Assembly: GCF_036507355.1 (NCBI RefSeq)
Contig: NZ_AP027877.1
DNA length: 64,000 nucleotides
Direction: 5' to 3' (one strand)
Source of the DNA: Escherichia coli
Lineage (GTDB): Bacteria > Pseudomonadota > Gammaproteobacteria > Enterobacterales > Enterobacteriaceae
Shown here: positions 7,570 to 64,000 of the stretch, piece after piece
Layout of the letters: each line of letters opens with the position of its first letter
Position numbering within the stretch: the first letter of the stretch is position 1
Notes under the pieces: model-generated
Told to the model about the DNA's origin: nothing
What the model saw: the letters and a program-made list of their open reading frames with translations, nothing else
Database searches by the model: none
Program-made: the position numbers and the translations under genes

Positions 7570-8580
<1,011 letters not shown>

Positions 8581-11365: not shown

Positions 11366-12217
11366 TTAACCCGCGTAAGCTGCCAGCATTTCCTGCGCCG
11401 CCAGTTTACCCAACGCATTCGCTGCGAAAGGACTGTCGCCGGTGAGAAGTTTACGGTCCTTATGTACTCGCCCGGTGATGTCGTCATTAATGATGTTCAT
11501 GCCCATTTTCTTCAGTTCTTCGCCGAAGTACCAGGTGAGATGACCCGGCATATAGCCAATCTCTGGCGTTTGTTTGTCTGCGGCGTCTGGGAATGCGCAA
11601 ATGGAATAACCATTCAGTGGGTTATCGCCGTGGCGAAGCGCCAGAAAAGCCGCCGGGCCGTGGCAAAGGGAGATAACAAAACGGTCATTTTTGATTGCCC
11701 ACTGTAAAGCGGCAGCTACGTCCTGGCTTTCAGGTAAACCAATAAGTGCGCCATGACCACCAGGAACAAAGATTGCTGCATATTCGCTATCAGCGTTGAG
11801 GCTGGCGACAACCTCCGCGAGTTTCTTCGGATTGCGGAACAACGATTTATGCTGCTCAAAGAATGGCATTACTTTTTCATCTTTGTGCGGCATAGCCCAG
11901 TATTCAAACTTGGTCATCAGACCGGAAATGGTCGCCACTTCGAATTCGAAACCTGCAGCATGGAGATGATACAACGGCAGCAACGTTTCAATCGGATGGT
12001 TACCGGTCGAGAACAGTTTTCCGTTATCGGTCGGCAAATAACGTTCGTCCGCGGCGATCACCAGAATTTTATGTTTACCGCGATACGGTTTTGGATAGTC
12101 CACGCCATCAAGATCAGAGACAGGACTGGTATATTGGCTAAGCGAATATTCTGAAGGGAAGAATGCATTATCTTCAGCAATATCGACCTGCGGATTTTTA
12201 CTTGTTTGAACAGTCAT
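11366..12217 (-). CDS. hchA: Glyoxalase III / Hsp31 (DJ-1/PfpI family)
   Basis: 283 aa MTVQTSKNPQVD... Confidence 0.93.
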   Translation of the reverse strand: MTVQTSKNPQVDIAEDNAFFPSEYSLSQYTSPVSDLDGVDYPKPYRGKHKILVIAADERYLPTDNGKLFSTGNHPIETLLPLYHLHAAGFEFEVATISGLMTKFEYWAMPHKDEKVMPFFEQHKSLFRNPKKLAEVVASLNADSEYAAIFVPGGHGALIGLPESQDVAAALQWAIKNDRFVISLCHGPAAFLALRHGDNPLNGYSICAFPDAADKQTPEIGYMPGHLTWYFGEELKKMGMNIINDDITGRVHKDRKLLTGDSPFAANALGKLAAQEMLAAYAG

Positions 12218-57427: not shown

Positions 57428-57503
<76 letters not shown>

Positions 57504-57557
57504 GTTTAAAAGACATCGGCCTCAAGCGGATGTCTGGCTGAAAGGCCTGAAGAATTT

Positions 57558-57631
57558 GGCGCGTTAACAAAGCGGTTATGTAGCGGATTGCAAATCCGTC
57601 TAGTCCGGTTCGACTCCGGAACGCGCCTCCA
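57558..57631 (+). tRNA. cysT: tRNA-Cys (GCA)
   Basis: 74 nt GGCGCGTTAACAAAGCGG...GCGCCTCCA. Confidence 0.95.
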
Positions 57632-57643
57632 ATTTCTTCCCGA

Positions 57644-57730
57644 GCCCGGATGGTGGAATCGGTAGACACAAGGGATTTAAAATCCCTCGGCGTTCGCGCT
57701 GTGCGGGTTCAAGTCCCGCTCCGGGTACCA
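57644..57730 (+). tRNA. leuZ: tRNA-Leu (TAA)
   Basis: 87 nt GCCCGGATGGTGGAATCGG...GGGTACCA. Confidence 0.95.
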
Positions 57731-57796: not shown

Positions 57797-57969
57797 TGCA
57801 TGCAATTCACGCCCTGTGCATATCCTGTGCTCACGGGGTGCAATGAGCTGCAATCTTCAGCCTGGCAATGCCGAATCGAACGTGTCGCTTCCAGCATAGA
57901 GAACCAGGCCGCTTTGCCTGTTTTCCGGTACGCTTCCGGGAAGGGGGCCGCTGAGCAAGCTGTAATGCT

Positions 57970-58709
57970 CTAGCCACCCTGAGTACAAAGTTGCTTAATT
58001 CGTGCAATCACCTCATCTCTGTACTTCTGGTGTCCGCGCATAGCCCTTGGATGGGCAATTCTGAAACAGATTGCATTACCTGTTTTGAACTCCCATAGCT
58101 TCCCCGGAATGACTGCAGAAGTCTCATAGCCGCCCAGCTCAGTAAGCACCTGTTTTATGATGTAGTCTGTTCTCCGGGCTCCAGATGCAAAGATGATGAA
58201 ATCAGGCTCAAGGTGTTTAATTTGTACCGCCAGCAGCTTCAGCGAGGCAATATAACTTCCTGCACTTCATTTTGAGGGCGATTGAGAGGGGTCAGTCCGT
58301 CGTAATCCCACGCCAGTAGATTGGCATACACGATAGCCTGAGGAGGGATATTAAGCTCCCGGGCCAGCCTGAAATGATACTGCGTGAAGCGGCTACGTGA
58401 TTTGAGGTTAGTGGTGCCATAATTTTGTACCGGAAGATGTTTCCTGTAACGATCTACAGCTTCTTCAACCACCTGCCCGATGGTGACGTCAGGTATAAGT
58501 CCCAACACCCGTGATATCGTATTCTTACCATTCAGAGTATTCCAGCCAGCGGTTTCACGTCCAACCAGCATGATTTTTACCGGTGAGTGCCAGTATTCTT
58601 CAAAGGGCACGGGTAAAAAGACGCCTGAGTATTTATCCTCATTCAGGTTAAATGACTGGGCGTCAACTTCCTGCAATATCCGTTTGTACGCGTCTAATAG
58701 CTTTTCCAT
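57970..58709 (-). pseudogene. Hypothetical protein with uracil-DNA-glycosylase-superfamily-like motifs, split by a frameshift
   Basis: 156-codon ORF (58239-58709) continues in another frame for ~89 codons to TAG at 57970-57972; frames overlap at ~58242-58268; motifs KIMLVGRETAGW and IAHPRAMRG resemble UDG motifs A and B. Confidence 0.55.
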
Positions 58710-60357: not shown

Positions 60358-60729
60358 ATGAAATTTGTCTCGAACTGGCAAGACCTGCCGTCGCTCCTTC
60401 TTCCGGAGTCAGTAATGAGTCTGTTGAAAACAGAGCTGGTACTCCCATTTGAAGATGAATACTCTGCAATGAGTTTCTGGGATGAAGTCGGGGTGACATT
60501 AATATATGTCGAGCCCGATGATGTACCTGAAGATATTAAAGCGCAGGTATTAAATGTGATTCATCAGTTAATTGCAAATCCAGAATTTGTAGTCCGTCTG
60601 ACAGATGACTATTACCTGATGCTTTCTGTTACGGAAGATAACGGGAACGGTATTTATCTGTTATTTCACCCCGATTGCCCTCTGAAGGGTATTGATTTAT
60701 TAGTTTCTATGGCCGAATCACGCTATTAA
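60358..60729 (+). CDS. Hypothetical acidic protein (123 aa)
   Basis: RBS GAGGA; highly acidic; AT-rich codon usage unlike the flanking core genes. Confidence 0.6.
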   Translation: MKFVSNWQDLPSLLLPESVMSLLKTELVLPFEDEYSAMSFWDEVGVTLIYVEPDDVPEDIKAQVLNVIHQLIANPEFVVRLTDDYYLMLSVTEDNGNGIYLLFHPDCPLKGIDLLVSMAESRY

Positions 60730-60754: not shown

Positions 60755-61288
60755 ATGAGTAAATCAAAATTAGTTAAAAATAATGTTGAGTCAGTTTCGA
60801 AGGAGATTAAAAATGAGGCAGAGGTTATTCATGAAAATCTCAGTGCAGATGAACAAACATTATCTGATGTAAAAGACTATCAGTTGCTCATTGAAACAGG
60901 TCAGGCAGAAAAAATCAGTCCTAAGGCAAGTGGTATGCTGACATGGCAACTGGCGATATCAGAGGTGGACAATGAACTTTATCTTCGTCTGGTGGCAAAT
61001 GGCTGTGGAGGGTTGTTCTCTAAGGACTGGATCTCACTTTCAAAGATTGCATCTGTTCTGGAAACACAACCTGCTACCGGCTTCTCATCCGGAGTATTCA
61101 GGCCGCTATTCAAAGGGGCAAGCACCAACAATGCAGGTTTTCTGGCTGCAGTTTTACGCTCCCCGGATATATGTCTGCTGGAGGCACATCCAGAGAAGTT
61201 ATTTACTCATGTATTATACCCGGACTGGAGGGAGCGGTTGAATAAACTTAATACGATTAGTAGCCAGGAAAAGATTACAGAGGATTAA
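60755..61288 (+). CDS. Hypothetical protein (177 aa)
   Basis: RBS AGGA; 25-nt gap from upstream gene, suggesting co-transcription. Confidence 0.6.
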   Translation: MSKSKLVKNNVESVSKEIKNEAEVIHENLSADEQTLSDVKDYQLLIETGQAEKISPKASGMLTWQLAISEVDNELYLRLVANGCGGLFSKDWISLSKIASVLETQPATGFSSGVFRPLFKGASTNNAGFLAAVLRSPDICLLEAHPEKLFTHVLYPDWRERLNKLNTISSQEKITED

Positions 61289-61360: not shown

Positions 61361-61795
61361 ATGCAAACCCAATATGCCTTAAAACAGGCAGGATTAACTC
61401 TGCCTGTTACTAAAGAATTTCAGCAGCATATTACTACGCTTCTGGCAAATCGGGTTTTACAAAAAATAACTGAGGCAGTGGTTATTAATTTCCGTGATCC
61501 GGACTACAGTGCAGAATCCGGCGGATTTCATCCGGTTGAAATGCGATTCATCCGTCAGGATAACGAATGGTATTTCGATTATGTCACAGACTTTAGTTAC
61601 ATGGGACGAGTCTACCCGGAACTGGAAAAAGAAATTGATTTTTGCTGGTCGGGGAATTATGTCTTCCATTATCTGGCTGGGGATATTTCACTGGCGGCAG
61701 AGAGGAATGAACTCTGGTCCTTATGGGAGGGTAATTTTATGGATTACCTGTCTATGGGGATTTACCGGGTAACGGTAACTGTGGAAAGTTGTTGA
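61361..61795 (+). CDS. Hypothetical protein (144 aa)
   Basis: RBS AAGGA; Trp/Tyr/Phe-rich. Confidence 0.6.
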   Translation: MQTQYALKQAGLTLPVTKEFQQHITTLLANRVLQKITEAVVINFRDPDYSAESGGFHPVEMRFIRQDNEWYFDYVTDFSYMGRVYPELEKEIDFCWSGNYVFHYLAGDISLAAERNELWSLWEGNFMDYLSMGIYRVTVTVESC

Positions 61796-62096
61796 CCCGT
61801 TATGAACAGGAAGAAAGCGGGCGGCTTTGTAATCTACTGCATGTGGCGTGCATCACAGCATGGAGATGATGTCTCTTTTTCCTGGCTGTTCGCATAAACA
61901 AGTGCAGACACGGGGGATCTCAGATCCCTCGTGATTTTTGCCCCCTATGGTGCATTCTCCAGTAGCAGGGTGATAACGGTTAATCCATTACCCCAACGAC
62001 AGTATTACACCGGTAATAAATGTTCATGAATACAGTTAGTTATGTGGGTTTTGAGGTGGGCTATGTCATCGTTGACGATAACTGAAGGTTTTACAG

Positions 62097-62324
62097 ATGT
62101 ATAAAACTCGCGGTGAAAGGATCGCAGAAAGGCTGTGCTGGATATTACTTCAACTGTATACCGGTAATACGGTATCGGTTAATGATATATGTCAGCGTTT
62201 CGCGGTCAGTCGCCGAACCGGACAGCGTGATTTGTTGAGAGTTGAAACTGTAACGGAAACTATTTCACCTGGAAGGGTAAGGCTGGCAAATTTGATAAGG
62301 GAACGAGTTAGACGAAATTTTTAA
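62097..62324 (+). CDS. HTH DNA-binding protein, possibly a truncated regulator
   Basis: 75 aa; helix-turn-helix-like segment VSVNDICQRFAVSRRTGQRDL. Confidence 0.45.
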   Translation: MYKTRGERIAERLCWILLQLYTGNTVSVNDICQRFAVSRRTGQRDLLRVETVTETISPGRVRLANLIRERVRRNF

Positions 62325-62546
62325 TCGAATCCATATCAATTCTATAAAATATGAAAATTAACGGGAGTAAATATACACTCCCGTTATAATGCAACCTTTT
62401 TTTAACTACTCAAATGATATTAATTTAGGTGCGACAGTGTTTTTATGACATGTTAAATTCGCAAGATCAATAATATCATGAAACAATTTTAGGTAATGCT
62501 GCCAACTTACTGATTTAGTGTATGATGGTGATTTTAAGGTGCTTGC

Positions 62547-62822
62547 GTGGCTTCCATTTCCATCAGATGTCCTTCCTGCTACGCTACTGAAGGCGTGGTG
62601 CGTAACGGCAAAAGCACTGCCGGACATCAGCGCTATCTCTGCTCTCATTACCGTAAAACATGGCAACTACAGTTCACTTACACCGCCTCTCAGCCCGGTA
62701 CGCACCAGAAAATCATTGATATGGCCATGAATGGCGTCGGATGTCGCGCCAGTGCACGCATTATGGGCGTTGGCCTCAACACGGTTTTACGTCACTTAAA
62801 AAACTCAGGCCGCAGTCGGTAA
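62547..62822 (+). CDS. insA: IS1 InsA
   Basis: 91 aa [23 protein letters not shown]... Confidence 0.92.
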
Positions 62823-62848
62823 CCTAGCGCATACAACCGGGCGGTGAT

Positions 62849-63244
62849 GTGATTGTCTGCGCTGAAATGGACGAACAGCGGGGTTACGTCGGCGCTAAAT
62901 CACGCCAGCGCTGGTTGTTTTACGCGTATGACAGGATTCGGAGGACGGTTGTGGCGCACGTATTCGGTGAACGCACTCTGGCCACACTGGAGCGTCTTCT
63001 GAGCCTGCTGTCGGCCTTTGAGGTCGTGGTATGGATGACGGATGGCTGGCCGCTGTATGAATCCCGCCTGAAGGGAAAGCTGCACGTTATCAGCAAGCGT
63101 TACACTCAGCGCATTGAGCGACATAATCTGAATCTGAGACAACATCTGGCAAGGCTGGGACGGAAGTCACTGTCGTTCTCAAAATCGGTGGAGCTGCATG
63201 ACAAGGTCATCGGGCATTATCTGAACATAAAACACTATCAGTAA
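62849..63244 (+). CDS. insB: IS1 InsB (expressed as InsAB' by -1 frameshift)
   Basis: Frame open upstream of the first ATG. Confidence 0.9.
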
Positions 63245-63435
63245 GTTGGAGTCATTACCTGTTTTTGCTGCATATTTGGCCATGCACTTTTGCCATCAAG
63301 TCAGAGAGACAGGGGCACCGTAAGAGACGAAGGTTGCTGCCTGTGATGAGAGGTTATCAGCAATTACAATGGTCACTAATATTTACATAATGTCGGAGAA
63401 CATCATTTTAGTTGAAATAATATAAAGGCGGTTCT

Positions 63436-63762
63436 ATGTATTTACATATCAGAAAGTATCAACTCGTAAATGCGAGATGGCGTGATATCATTGATTTGAC
63501 GGATTATGAAGAAACAATCAAGCAGGTTGTGAGTACATTATTTGGAAATGATTTTATTGAGGTCAGAGTTGAAACGCGTTGTTTTATTCTGACAGTAAAC
63601 AGTACAAGCAGTAAAATACCACACGGCATACTGGTGAATATGGGGAAAAGGCTGGCGGCGAATCTCCAGAGTATCACCTGTCATGCCATGCGGATCTATC
63701 ATGTAAATGGCCATCCTGACGCGCGGCAGTTATTTCACTGTTTTGATGCCGATTGCCTGTGA
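63436..63762 (+). CDS. Hypothetical protein (108 aa)
   Basis: ORF only; beyond IS1 in AT-rich DNA. Confidence 0.4.
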   Translation: MYLHIRKYQLVNARWRDIIDLTDYEETIKQVVSTLFGNDFIEVRVETRCFILTVNSTSSKIPHGILVNMGKRLAANLQSITCHAMRIYHVNGHPDARQLFHCFDADCL

Positions 63763-64000
63763 TTAAGCCCCCAACTTCTGTTAAAGGAGTTGGGGGAGAT
63801 TTAACGGTTATCAGACTGGAAGACAGAATGTCGGATATTTACGGGCTATGATATCCATCAGTGACTTCATTCGCGGTGTTACAGAACTAAATTTCATTTG
63901 GGGTATTTTTGCTCTTACCGCATTTTTTACATCAGTCACCGTTACTGAATAGCCTTCTGACGTCAGCCATTCAGCAACCTCTTTACAGGAATAACTTTTT

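Follow-up and report, generated by a model that had tools for sequence, protein, structure and literature searches.

The window analysed in the present study, i.e. the whole stretch of 64,000 nucleotides of Escherichia coli DNA, ends within an E. coli pipolin integrated at tRNA-Leu(taa), and the small open reading frame considered here (ORF108) belongs to this element. The genes for tRNA-Gly, tRNA-Cys and tRNA-Leu(taa) are located at positions 57428–57730, downstream of uvrC and pgsA. The following features were distinguished from the last of these genes to the end of the window:

57644–57730, + strand: tRNA-Leu(taa), where E. coli pipolins integrate according to PMC7385651
58790–59989, + strand: IntSXT-type tyrosine integrase, the integrase of the island
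60358–60729, + strand: 123-aa orphan core gene
60755–61288, + strand: 177-aa orphan core gene
61361–61795, + strand: DUF2787 gene, a published pipolin core marker (PMC11551731)
62406–62491, − strand: remnant of a DUF726 alpha/beta-hydrolase gene (last ~28 codons), truncated by IS1
62492–63259, + strand: IS1 (768 bp), insA/insB reading towards ORF108, no target duplication
63363–63391, + strand: sigma-70-like promoter candidate, ATTACA-17-CATAAT (consensus match only)
63425–63428, + strand: Shine-Dalgarno-like AAGG, 7 nt 5' of the ORF108 ATG (read from the sequence)
63436–63762, + strand: ORF108, protein-coding gene for a 108-aa product, ATG start, TGA stop
63768–63796, no strand assigned: G+C-rich hairpin with a 12-bp stem, between the convergent ORF108 and piPolB stops
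63811–64000, − strand: 3' end of piPolB, which runs off the window (866 aa in L001)

Two further reading frames lie among these features. A 246-aa hypothetical gene (57969–58709, − strand), placed between tRNA-Leu and the integrase gene, is intact in the related loci L001 and L004 and annotated as frameshifted in L002; in the window it is seen only as a 156-aa ORF (58239–58709) and is probably frameshifted. A 75-aa ORF (62097–62324, + strand) between the DUF2787 gene and the DUF726 remnant carries no annotation in RefSeq relatives and weakly resembles HTH_11 and HTH_DeoR (E 2e-4 and 3e-3, neither reaching the Pfam cut-offs); in L011, L035 and L036, genes for 79–82 aa have been called in a comparable position.

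The gene that runs off the window is complete in L001, which is 100% identical to positions 63261–64000. In its 866-aa product, D59/E61 and the KH-X8-KTRG motif occupy the same positions as in the published primer-independent PolB (piPolB) of E. coli (PMC5695915), and the match of this gene to the Pfam family DNA_pol_B_2 is weak (E 0.006). Past piPolB, L001 contains a 212-aa gene, an HTH_17 excisionase-like gene, a gene for an XerC/IntP2-type recombinase and type I restriction-modification cargo. The restriction-modification operon (L001 23623–30740, past the window end) carries two extra genes between hsdS and hsdR, encoding a YecA-family protein and a 620-aa cold-shock-domain protein.

The integration site of enterobacterial pipolins is a tRNA-Leu gene downstream of pgsA (Flament-Simon et al. 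2020, PMC7385651), and their core, as set out in the published descriptions, comprises piPolB, IntSXT, IntP2 with its excisionase, DUF2787, a WYL protein and 'several orphan proteins' (PMC11551731, PMC7385651). The element carrying ORF108 is of the same type, with the same tRNA-Leu site and the same neighbours. The full set of IntSXT, IntP2 and excisionase, DUF2787 and WYL is present in L003, L004, L014 and L015; in the window, the WYL gene has been removed by IS1, and the IntP2 side lies past the window end. The main text of both papers mentions the orphan proteins without singling out the ORF108 gene, which is evidently one of these published, uncharacterised core orphans. Within the element, ORF108 closes the integrase-proximal core module and is convergent with piPolB.

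The ORF list bore out the reading frame (+ strand, ATG/TGA), which a preliminary description of this DNA had placed in AT-rich sequence to the right of IS1 and had considered to be devoid of any recognisable motif. Both of these statements also held. The G+C content is 0.375 (63200–63599) and 0.443 (63600–63999), compared with 0.552 within IS1, while searches with the ORF108 protein gave no hits in Pfam at E ≤ 10, none in PHROGs, and only noise in NCBIfam (a partial helicase match, E 0.06) and PADLOC (a partial match to the HamB helicase, E 0.01). Our literature searches found no study describing ORF108.

The AAGG preceding the start codon is likewise found in L003, L014 and L015, and the promoter candidate, retained to the right of IS1, is conserved in L003. 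The hairpin between the two stop codons (dG −26.1 kcal/mol, z −4.3 by RNA folding) is likely to act as a bidirectional terminator lacking a clear T-run, and hairpins of unrelated sequence are present at the equivalent place in L005 and L006. A simple terminator scan around ORF108 detected none (the hairpin at 63768–63796 has no T-run), and positions 63200–64000 had no match in Rfam.

Homologues, on which the preliminary description had made the standing of this ORF depend, were found in both protein searches performed. A word-indexed search revealed 12 close relatives, among them full-length 108-aa proteins of 97, 94, 84, 74 and 49% identity, and a HMMER profile search of 1.84 billion representatives yielded 35 hits, mostly of 100–118 aa, with identity reaching down to ~24%. 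At the DNA level, ORF108 is present in 267 of the 5,426 complete E. coli genomes, where it is called as a CDS for a hypothetical protein (e.g. WP_042631080.1) with a median of one copy per genome. The dN/dS values for E. coli and Citrobacter alleles (0.18–0.40) were accompanied by a clustering of the changes at residues 12–52 and 104–106, residues 53–103 being invariant in these alleles. The family is recognised by the motifs Y-x-L-V...R...D-L..Y, G-x-L-V-N-x-G-K, A-x-R-x-Y and R-Q-L-F-x-C, and the residues Y8, L10, V11, R16, D20, L21, I28, G70, Y88, L99 and F100 are nearly invariant in an alignment of 21 sequences. ORF108 is a genuine, conserved gene without a database family name.

Comparison with relatives lacking IS1 (L003 and L004 from E. 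coli, L014 and L015 from Citrobacter, and L036) revealed that the sequences flanking IS1 in the window are contiguous in a single island. The gene order there is IntSXT-type integrase, 123-aa gene, 177-aa gene, DUF2787, an effector and WYL regulator pair (− strand), ORF108 and piPolB (− strand). In L003, L004, L014 and L015 the pair, both genes on the − strand, encodes an alpha/beta hydrolase of the DUF726/LCAT-like type (272 aa) and an HTH-WYL-WCX regulator (300 aa); 378 bp of intergenic DNA separate the regulator gene from ORF108, the two being transcribed divergently. In the window, IS1 stands in place of ~1.9 kb of this DNA (roughly L003 9982–11889), comprising most of the DUF726 gene, the entire WYL regulator gene and ~210 bp of the intergenic region.

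As reported in the preliminary description, IS1 is not bordered by an 8–9 bp target-site duplication: its 9-bp flanks, ACAATTTTA on the left and TGTTTTTGC on the right, differ. The absence of the duplication is explained by the ~1.9-kb internal deletion. Approximately 105 complete genomes (of the L001/L002 type) share the right IS1 junction and retain 308 bp more of the hydrolase gene on the left, and no genome among the 5,426 complete ones of E. coli contained the left junction of the window as one contiguous piece. The window IS1 is a mosaic relative to that of L001/L002, from which it differs by 13 substitutions, all within 62581–62965; over 62966–63259 it is the same as the L002 copy, and L001 has one private change, at 63209. 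From these comparisons we infer that the present arrangement arose by nested deletion or by IS1–IS1 recombination inside one island. The earlier proposal that ORF108 may come from another acquired segment, which a rearrangement fused to the island, is thus correct as regards a rearrangement at IS1 and fails as regards the separate segment; analysis of the neighbourhoods of homologues placed ORF108 in the same island backbone. IS1 marks an internal pipolin deletion, not a junction of two islands. This deletion takes out the WYL regulator and the hydrolase, and ORF108 is intact in at least ~105 genomes with the IS1 deletion.

Related loci were also collected by a search based on an 11-sequence ORF108 alignment. 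Among pipolins, the gene was found at a conserved position in L003, L004, L013, L014, L015, L035 and L036 and in the divergent L006–L008. It is always located just past the 3' end of piPolB, and the slot on its left varies. This slot, between DUF2787 and ORF108 (window 61796–63435; L003 9286–12056; L036 4047–6853; L006 6983–8000), contains (i) WYL300 and DUF726 genes (L003, L004, L014, L015), (ii) WYL312 and MMR_HSR1 GTPase genes (L035, L036), (iii) an LRAT-family gene alone, without a WYL gene (L006–L008), or (iv) IS1 with the deletion. The WYL and effector pairs look like two-gene defence-type cassettes, of which PADLOC recognises only the WYL domain.

The L006-type pipolin and its E. coli counterpart share 39% identity in ORF108, compared with 71% in piPolB, 95% in the integrase and 87.5% in DUF2787. 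By this measure, ORF108 diverges much faster than its pipolin neighbours, a pattern that would suit a conflict-type role, in defence or anti-defence, just as well; the L006-type protein still groups with the other pipolin alleles.

Homologues of ORF108 were also identified in islands of Enterobacter, Pseudocitrobacter, Citrobacter, Morganella, Mixta and Kluyvera (L005, L011, L017, L019–L024; e.g. L005 335–9498), in which a DUF927 primase-type gene and an integrase replace piPolB. Their module consists of a 117-aa gene, a 139-aa gene, DUF2787, LRAT and a 126-aa gene, followed by a JukA homologue (PADLOC E 1.5e-68), a 236-aa WYL regulator and the ORF108 homologue, which is the last gene before variable cargo. 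In L011, this cargo includes a Prok-E2/ThiF/JAB protein and a metallo-beta-lactamase-fold gene. The 139-aa gene is a homologue of the 177-aa pipolin orphan, other homologues of which (176–188 aa) occur in L028 and L029. Since the DUF927 islands carry homologues of the 177-aa orphan, DUF2787 and ORF108, the integrase-proximal pipolin core is common to a sister island family with a DUF927 primase. The WYL regulator beside ORF108 is divergent from it in pipolins and in tandem with it in DUF927 islands, and the partner genes of the regulator (DUF726 hydrolase, MMR_HSR1 GTPase, JukA homologue) are unrelated. Adjacency to a WYL gene is not universal, being absent in L006–L008 and L012.

In L012, the ORF108 homologue has a DUF927-HTH_56 gene on one side and an integrase gene on the other, and the stop codon of the homologue overlaps the integrase start. 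Distant homologues (~25% identity) in L028 and L029 adjoin an IntSXT-like integrase and the homologue of the 177-aa orphan. Other distant homologues (L009, L010, L027 and L030) are on contigs too short for their surroundings to be read. Pseudogene relics of the family were detected in E. coli-type island contigs from IMG/VR (L031 7950–8300; L032–L034 around 8001–8207); these have lost the N-terminus, contain in-frame stops and are placed directly 5' of a DUF262-like 625-aa gene with hsdM and hsdS. Members of the ORF108 family form part of the backbone in a broader class of tyrosine-integrase islands, usually with a WYL neighbour and often bordering variable DNA. What the present study adds to the published pipolin core is the occurrence of ORF108 relatives in islands without piPolB and the location of the gene at the border of a small variable slot.

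HTH-WYL-WCX is the domain layout of BrxR and CapW, the WYL-type regulators of defence systems. Like the genes controlled by such regulators, ORF108 adjoins an HTH-WYL-WCX protein gene in two island families; it differs from them in that it is no known defence protein and in that the window, like some relatives, lacks the regulator. In L003, the intergenic DNA separating the WYL gene from ORF108 contains a perfect 17-nt inverted repeat (arms GGACAGGATGAGTCCAC / GTGGACTCATCCTGTCC at 11728–11744 and 11821–11837, 76 nt apart), with further ATCCTG(T/A)CC copies nearby. This repeat is a candidate operator or structured element, and all of the intergenic repeats are deleted in the window. A TGATGATTAA-like upstream operator common to the island families was also considered and was rejected as too AT-rich and too short.

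Where a WYL sensor-regulator adjoins, the ORF108 promoter would be controlled by it. In the window strain this control would have been lost, and ORF108 would be expressed from the retained proximal promoter or by read-through from IS1. Judged from the sequence, such expression is plausible, since the promoter candidate and ribosome-binding site are kept and ORF108 lies in the reading direction of the IS1 transposase genes, and it would presumably be unregulated. That ORF108 is a toxic effector curbed only by the WYL regulator is unlikely, because the gene is intact in many genomes in which IS1 has removed the regulator.

The structure of the ORF108 protein was predicted with AlphaFold2 from the 21-sequence alignment, and all five models agreed (pLDDT 93.8, pTM 0.83). 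The predicted topology comprises strand b1 (residues 2–10), a helix (21–39), strands b2 (40–45) and b3 (50–56), helices at 63–76 and 78–84, a short hairpin and strand b4 (100–107). The nearest solved structures to this beta-alpha-beta-beta-alpha-beta domain are Y1 (HUH) transposases of the IS200/IS605 type, to which ORF108 shows only 9–13% identity; generic ferredoxin-like folds scored 7.4 or less. Foldseek with an earlier model again ranked TnpA chains at the top, and a comparison of the model with the viral structures of BFVD gave nothing meaningful.

The model shares the alpha/beta core fold of TnpA, but the catalytic features of the latter are missing. TnpA carries an HUH metal-binding motif on a beta strand, whereas no His pair is conserved among the 21 aligned sequences of the ORF108 family; the third strand reads CFILTVNS, with variable outward-facing positions. 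In TnpA the catalytic Tyr resides on a C-terminal helix, which ORF108 lacks because the protein ends at residue 108, directly past strand b4. ORF108 does not match the Y1_Tnp profile (PF01797), hhalign of the family against IS200 TnpA gave a probability of 0.2% (with a TnpA sequence that matches Y1_Tnp at E 3.9e-38), and a search of PDB sequences with the family profile returned only noise and no TnpA chain. IS200/IS605 systems are insertion sequences with tnpB and multiple copies, whereas ORF108 is a single-copy gene outside any IS and without tnpB; from REP-associated tyrosine transposases, which belong to the same Y1 (PF01797) group, it differs likewise. Since both the catalytic features and the sequence-profile relationship are absent, we rejected the classification of ORF108 as a Y1 transposase. 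The model looks like a TnpA-like fold without TnpA chemistry, a predicted resemblance that is not diagnostic, as ferredoxin-like folds are very common and structural similarity at 9–13% identity is no proof of common ancestry with TnpA.

A zinc or disulphide site formed by C82, H83, H93 and C102 was also considered and rejected, since none of the four residues is invariant across the family. The charge of the protein is near neutral (12 K/R and 11 D/E), unlike the basic profile typical of DNA binders.

The best explanation overall, which we give a probability of about one half, has an established part, that ORF108 is a gene of the pipolin backbone, and a more tentative one, that it encodes a non-catalytic accessory or regulatory factor. 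This factor would bind nucleic acid or a partner protein and would be under WYL control where a WYL gene adjoins. The protein would have no catalytic activity of its own and would bind single-stranded, hairpin or origin-like DNA, or a partner protein, in the service of the island life cycle. A DNA-binding role is weakened by the non-basic character of the protein and by the commonness of the fold.

It is rather unlikely that ORF108, instead of serving the island as a housekeeping gene, forms part of a WYL-controlled anti-phage cassette located in the adjacent variable slot, as its output, adaptor or effector. The neighbouring regulator is of the HTH-WYL-WCX type, as in BrxR/CapW, and its partner changes between the DUF726 hydrolase, the MMR_HSR1 GTPase and the JukA homologue; however, ORF108 stays constant while this effector-like partner is swapped, and it persists without a WYL gene in L006–L008 and L012. 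Pipolins have been described as defence islands (Mateo-Caceres et al., NAR 2024, PMC11551731), JukA loci often adjoin WYL genes (bioRxiv 10.1101/2022.09.17.508391), and the ORF108 relics adjoin DUF262-like and type I restriction-modification cargo, but ORF108 itself has no PADLOC or PHROG match. Its fast evolution relative to its neighbours speaks for a place in such a cassette, and its intactness in the genomes that have lost regulator and hydrolase to IS1 speaks against it.

A role as recombination directionality factor or other accessory protein of the IntSXT-type integrase appears doubtful. The overlap of the L012 homologue with the integrase start resembles a xis-int arrangement, and the family is always found in tyrosine-integrase islands; in pipolins and DUF927 islands, however, ORF108 is separated from the integrase gene by 3.5–4.5 kb and at least five genes, adjacency being confined to L012. 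As presented in the text of PMC11551731, the HTH_17 excisionase-like gene of pipolins pairs with the other (IntP2/XerC-like) integrase, which leaves IntSXT without an obvious partner, yet ORF108 is not basic and is predicted to adopt an alpha/beta fold, not that of HTH_17 or of a winged helix.

The two remaining readings are essentially excluded. A different acquired segment, joined by IS1-mediated rearrangement, would account for the AT-rich DNA to the right of IS1 and the missing duplication, but the latter is explained by the ~1.9-kb deletion, one of a nested series with a common right junction, and both flanks are contiguous in one island of IS1-free E. coli and Citrobacter genomes, with the same gene order recurring in divergent pipolins. 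A chance ORF, non-coding DNA or a decayed IS200-type transposase gene would fit the small, AT-rich region, the lack of a family annotation and the TnpA-like fold, but not full-length homologues of conserved length and motifs down to 24% identity, dN/dS below 0.4, a model of pLDDT 93.8, or a gene with a median of one copy per genome, no tnpB and no Y1_Tnp match.

If ORF108 does encode an accessory factor of the island backbone, a speculative and in itself improbable elaboration is that it acts as a stand-alone, catalytically dead HUH/TnpA-fold protein that gives the island replicase its target and is induced via the WYL sensor. It would bind a hairpin or origin of the element, being switched on through the neighbouring WYL sensor, and would thereby direct the primer-independent, apparently sequence-unspecific piPolB or, in the sister islands, the DUF927 primase-helicase. 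The origin-binding domain of SV40 large T antigen and the DNA-binding domain of papillomavirus E1 are HUH-like folds without catalysis that serve as DNA-recognition modules. Like the ORF108 model, these domains have an HUH-like fold minus the nuclease residues and would offer a parallel in being tied to the replicase of their own element; they differ in being fused to SF3 helicases and in binding double-stranded origin repeats, whereas ORF108 is a stand-alone protein. In L012 the ORF108 homologue is located directly beside the DUF927 replicase gene. By analogy, the association of the family with self-replication genes (piPolB, DUF927) makes a role in origin or hairpin recognition attractive. 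To our knowledge, no origin has been reported for pipolins.

Pipolins encode a primer-independent polymerase yet are not known to have an origin, a specificity factor or genes for transfer, and our literature searches found no functional study on pipolin induction, replication or transfer (see also PMC11551731). On present evidence, ORF108 is an uncharacterised small protein of an already described element, and its family, unnamed so far, can be defined from the alignment made here. The gene lies between the WYL sensor-regulator and piPolB, and the predicted fold is typical of proteins with a role in DNA hairpin or origin recognition. The conserved backbone position and this fold make ORF108 a cheap, testable candidate for one of the missing pipolin functions; if it does target the replicase, such targeting would be the missing link between pipolin induction and self-replication.
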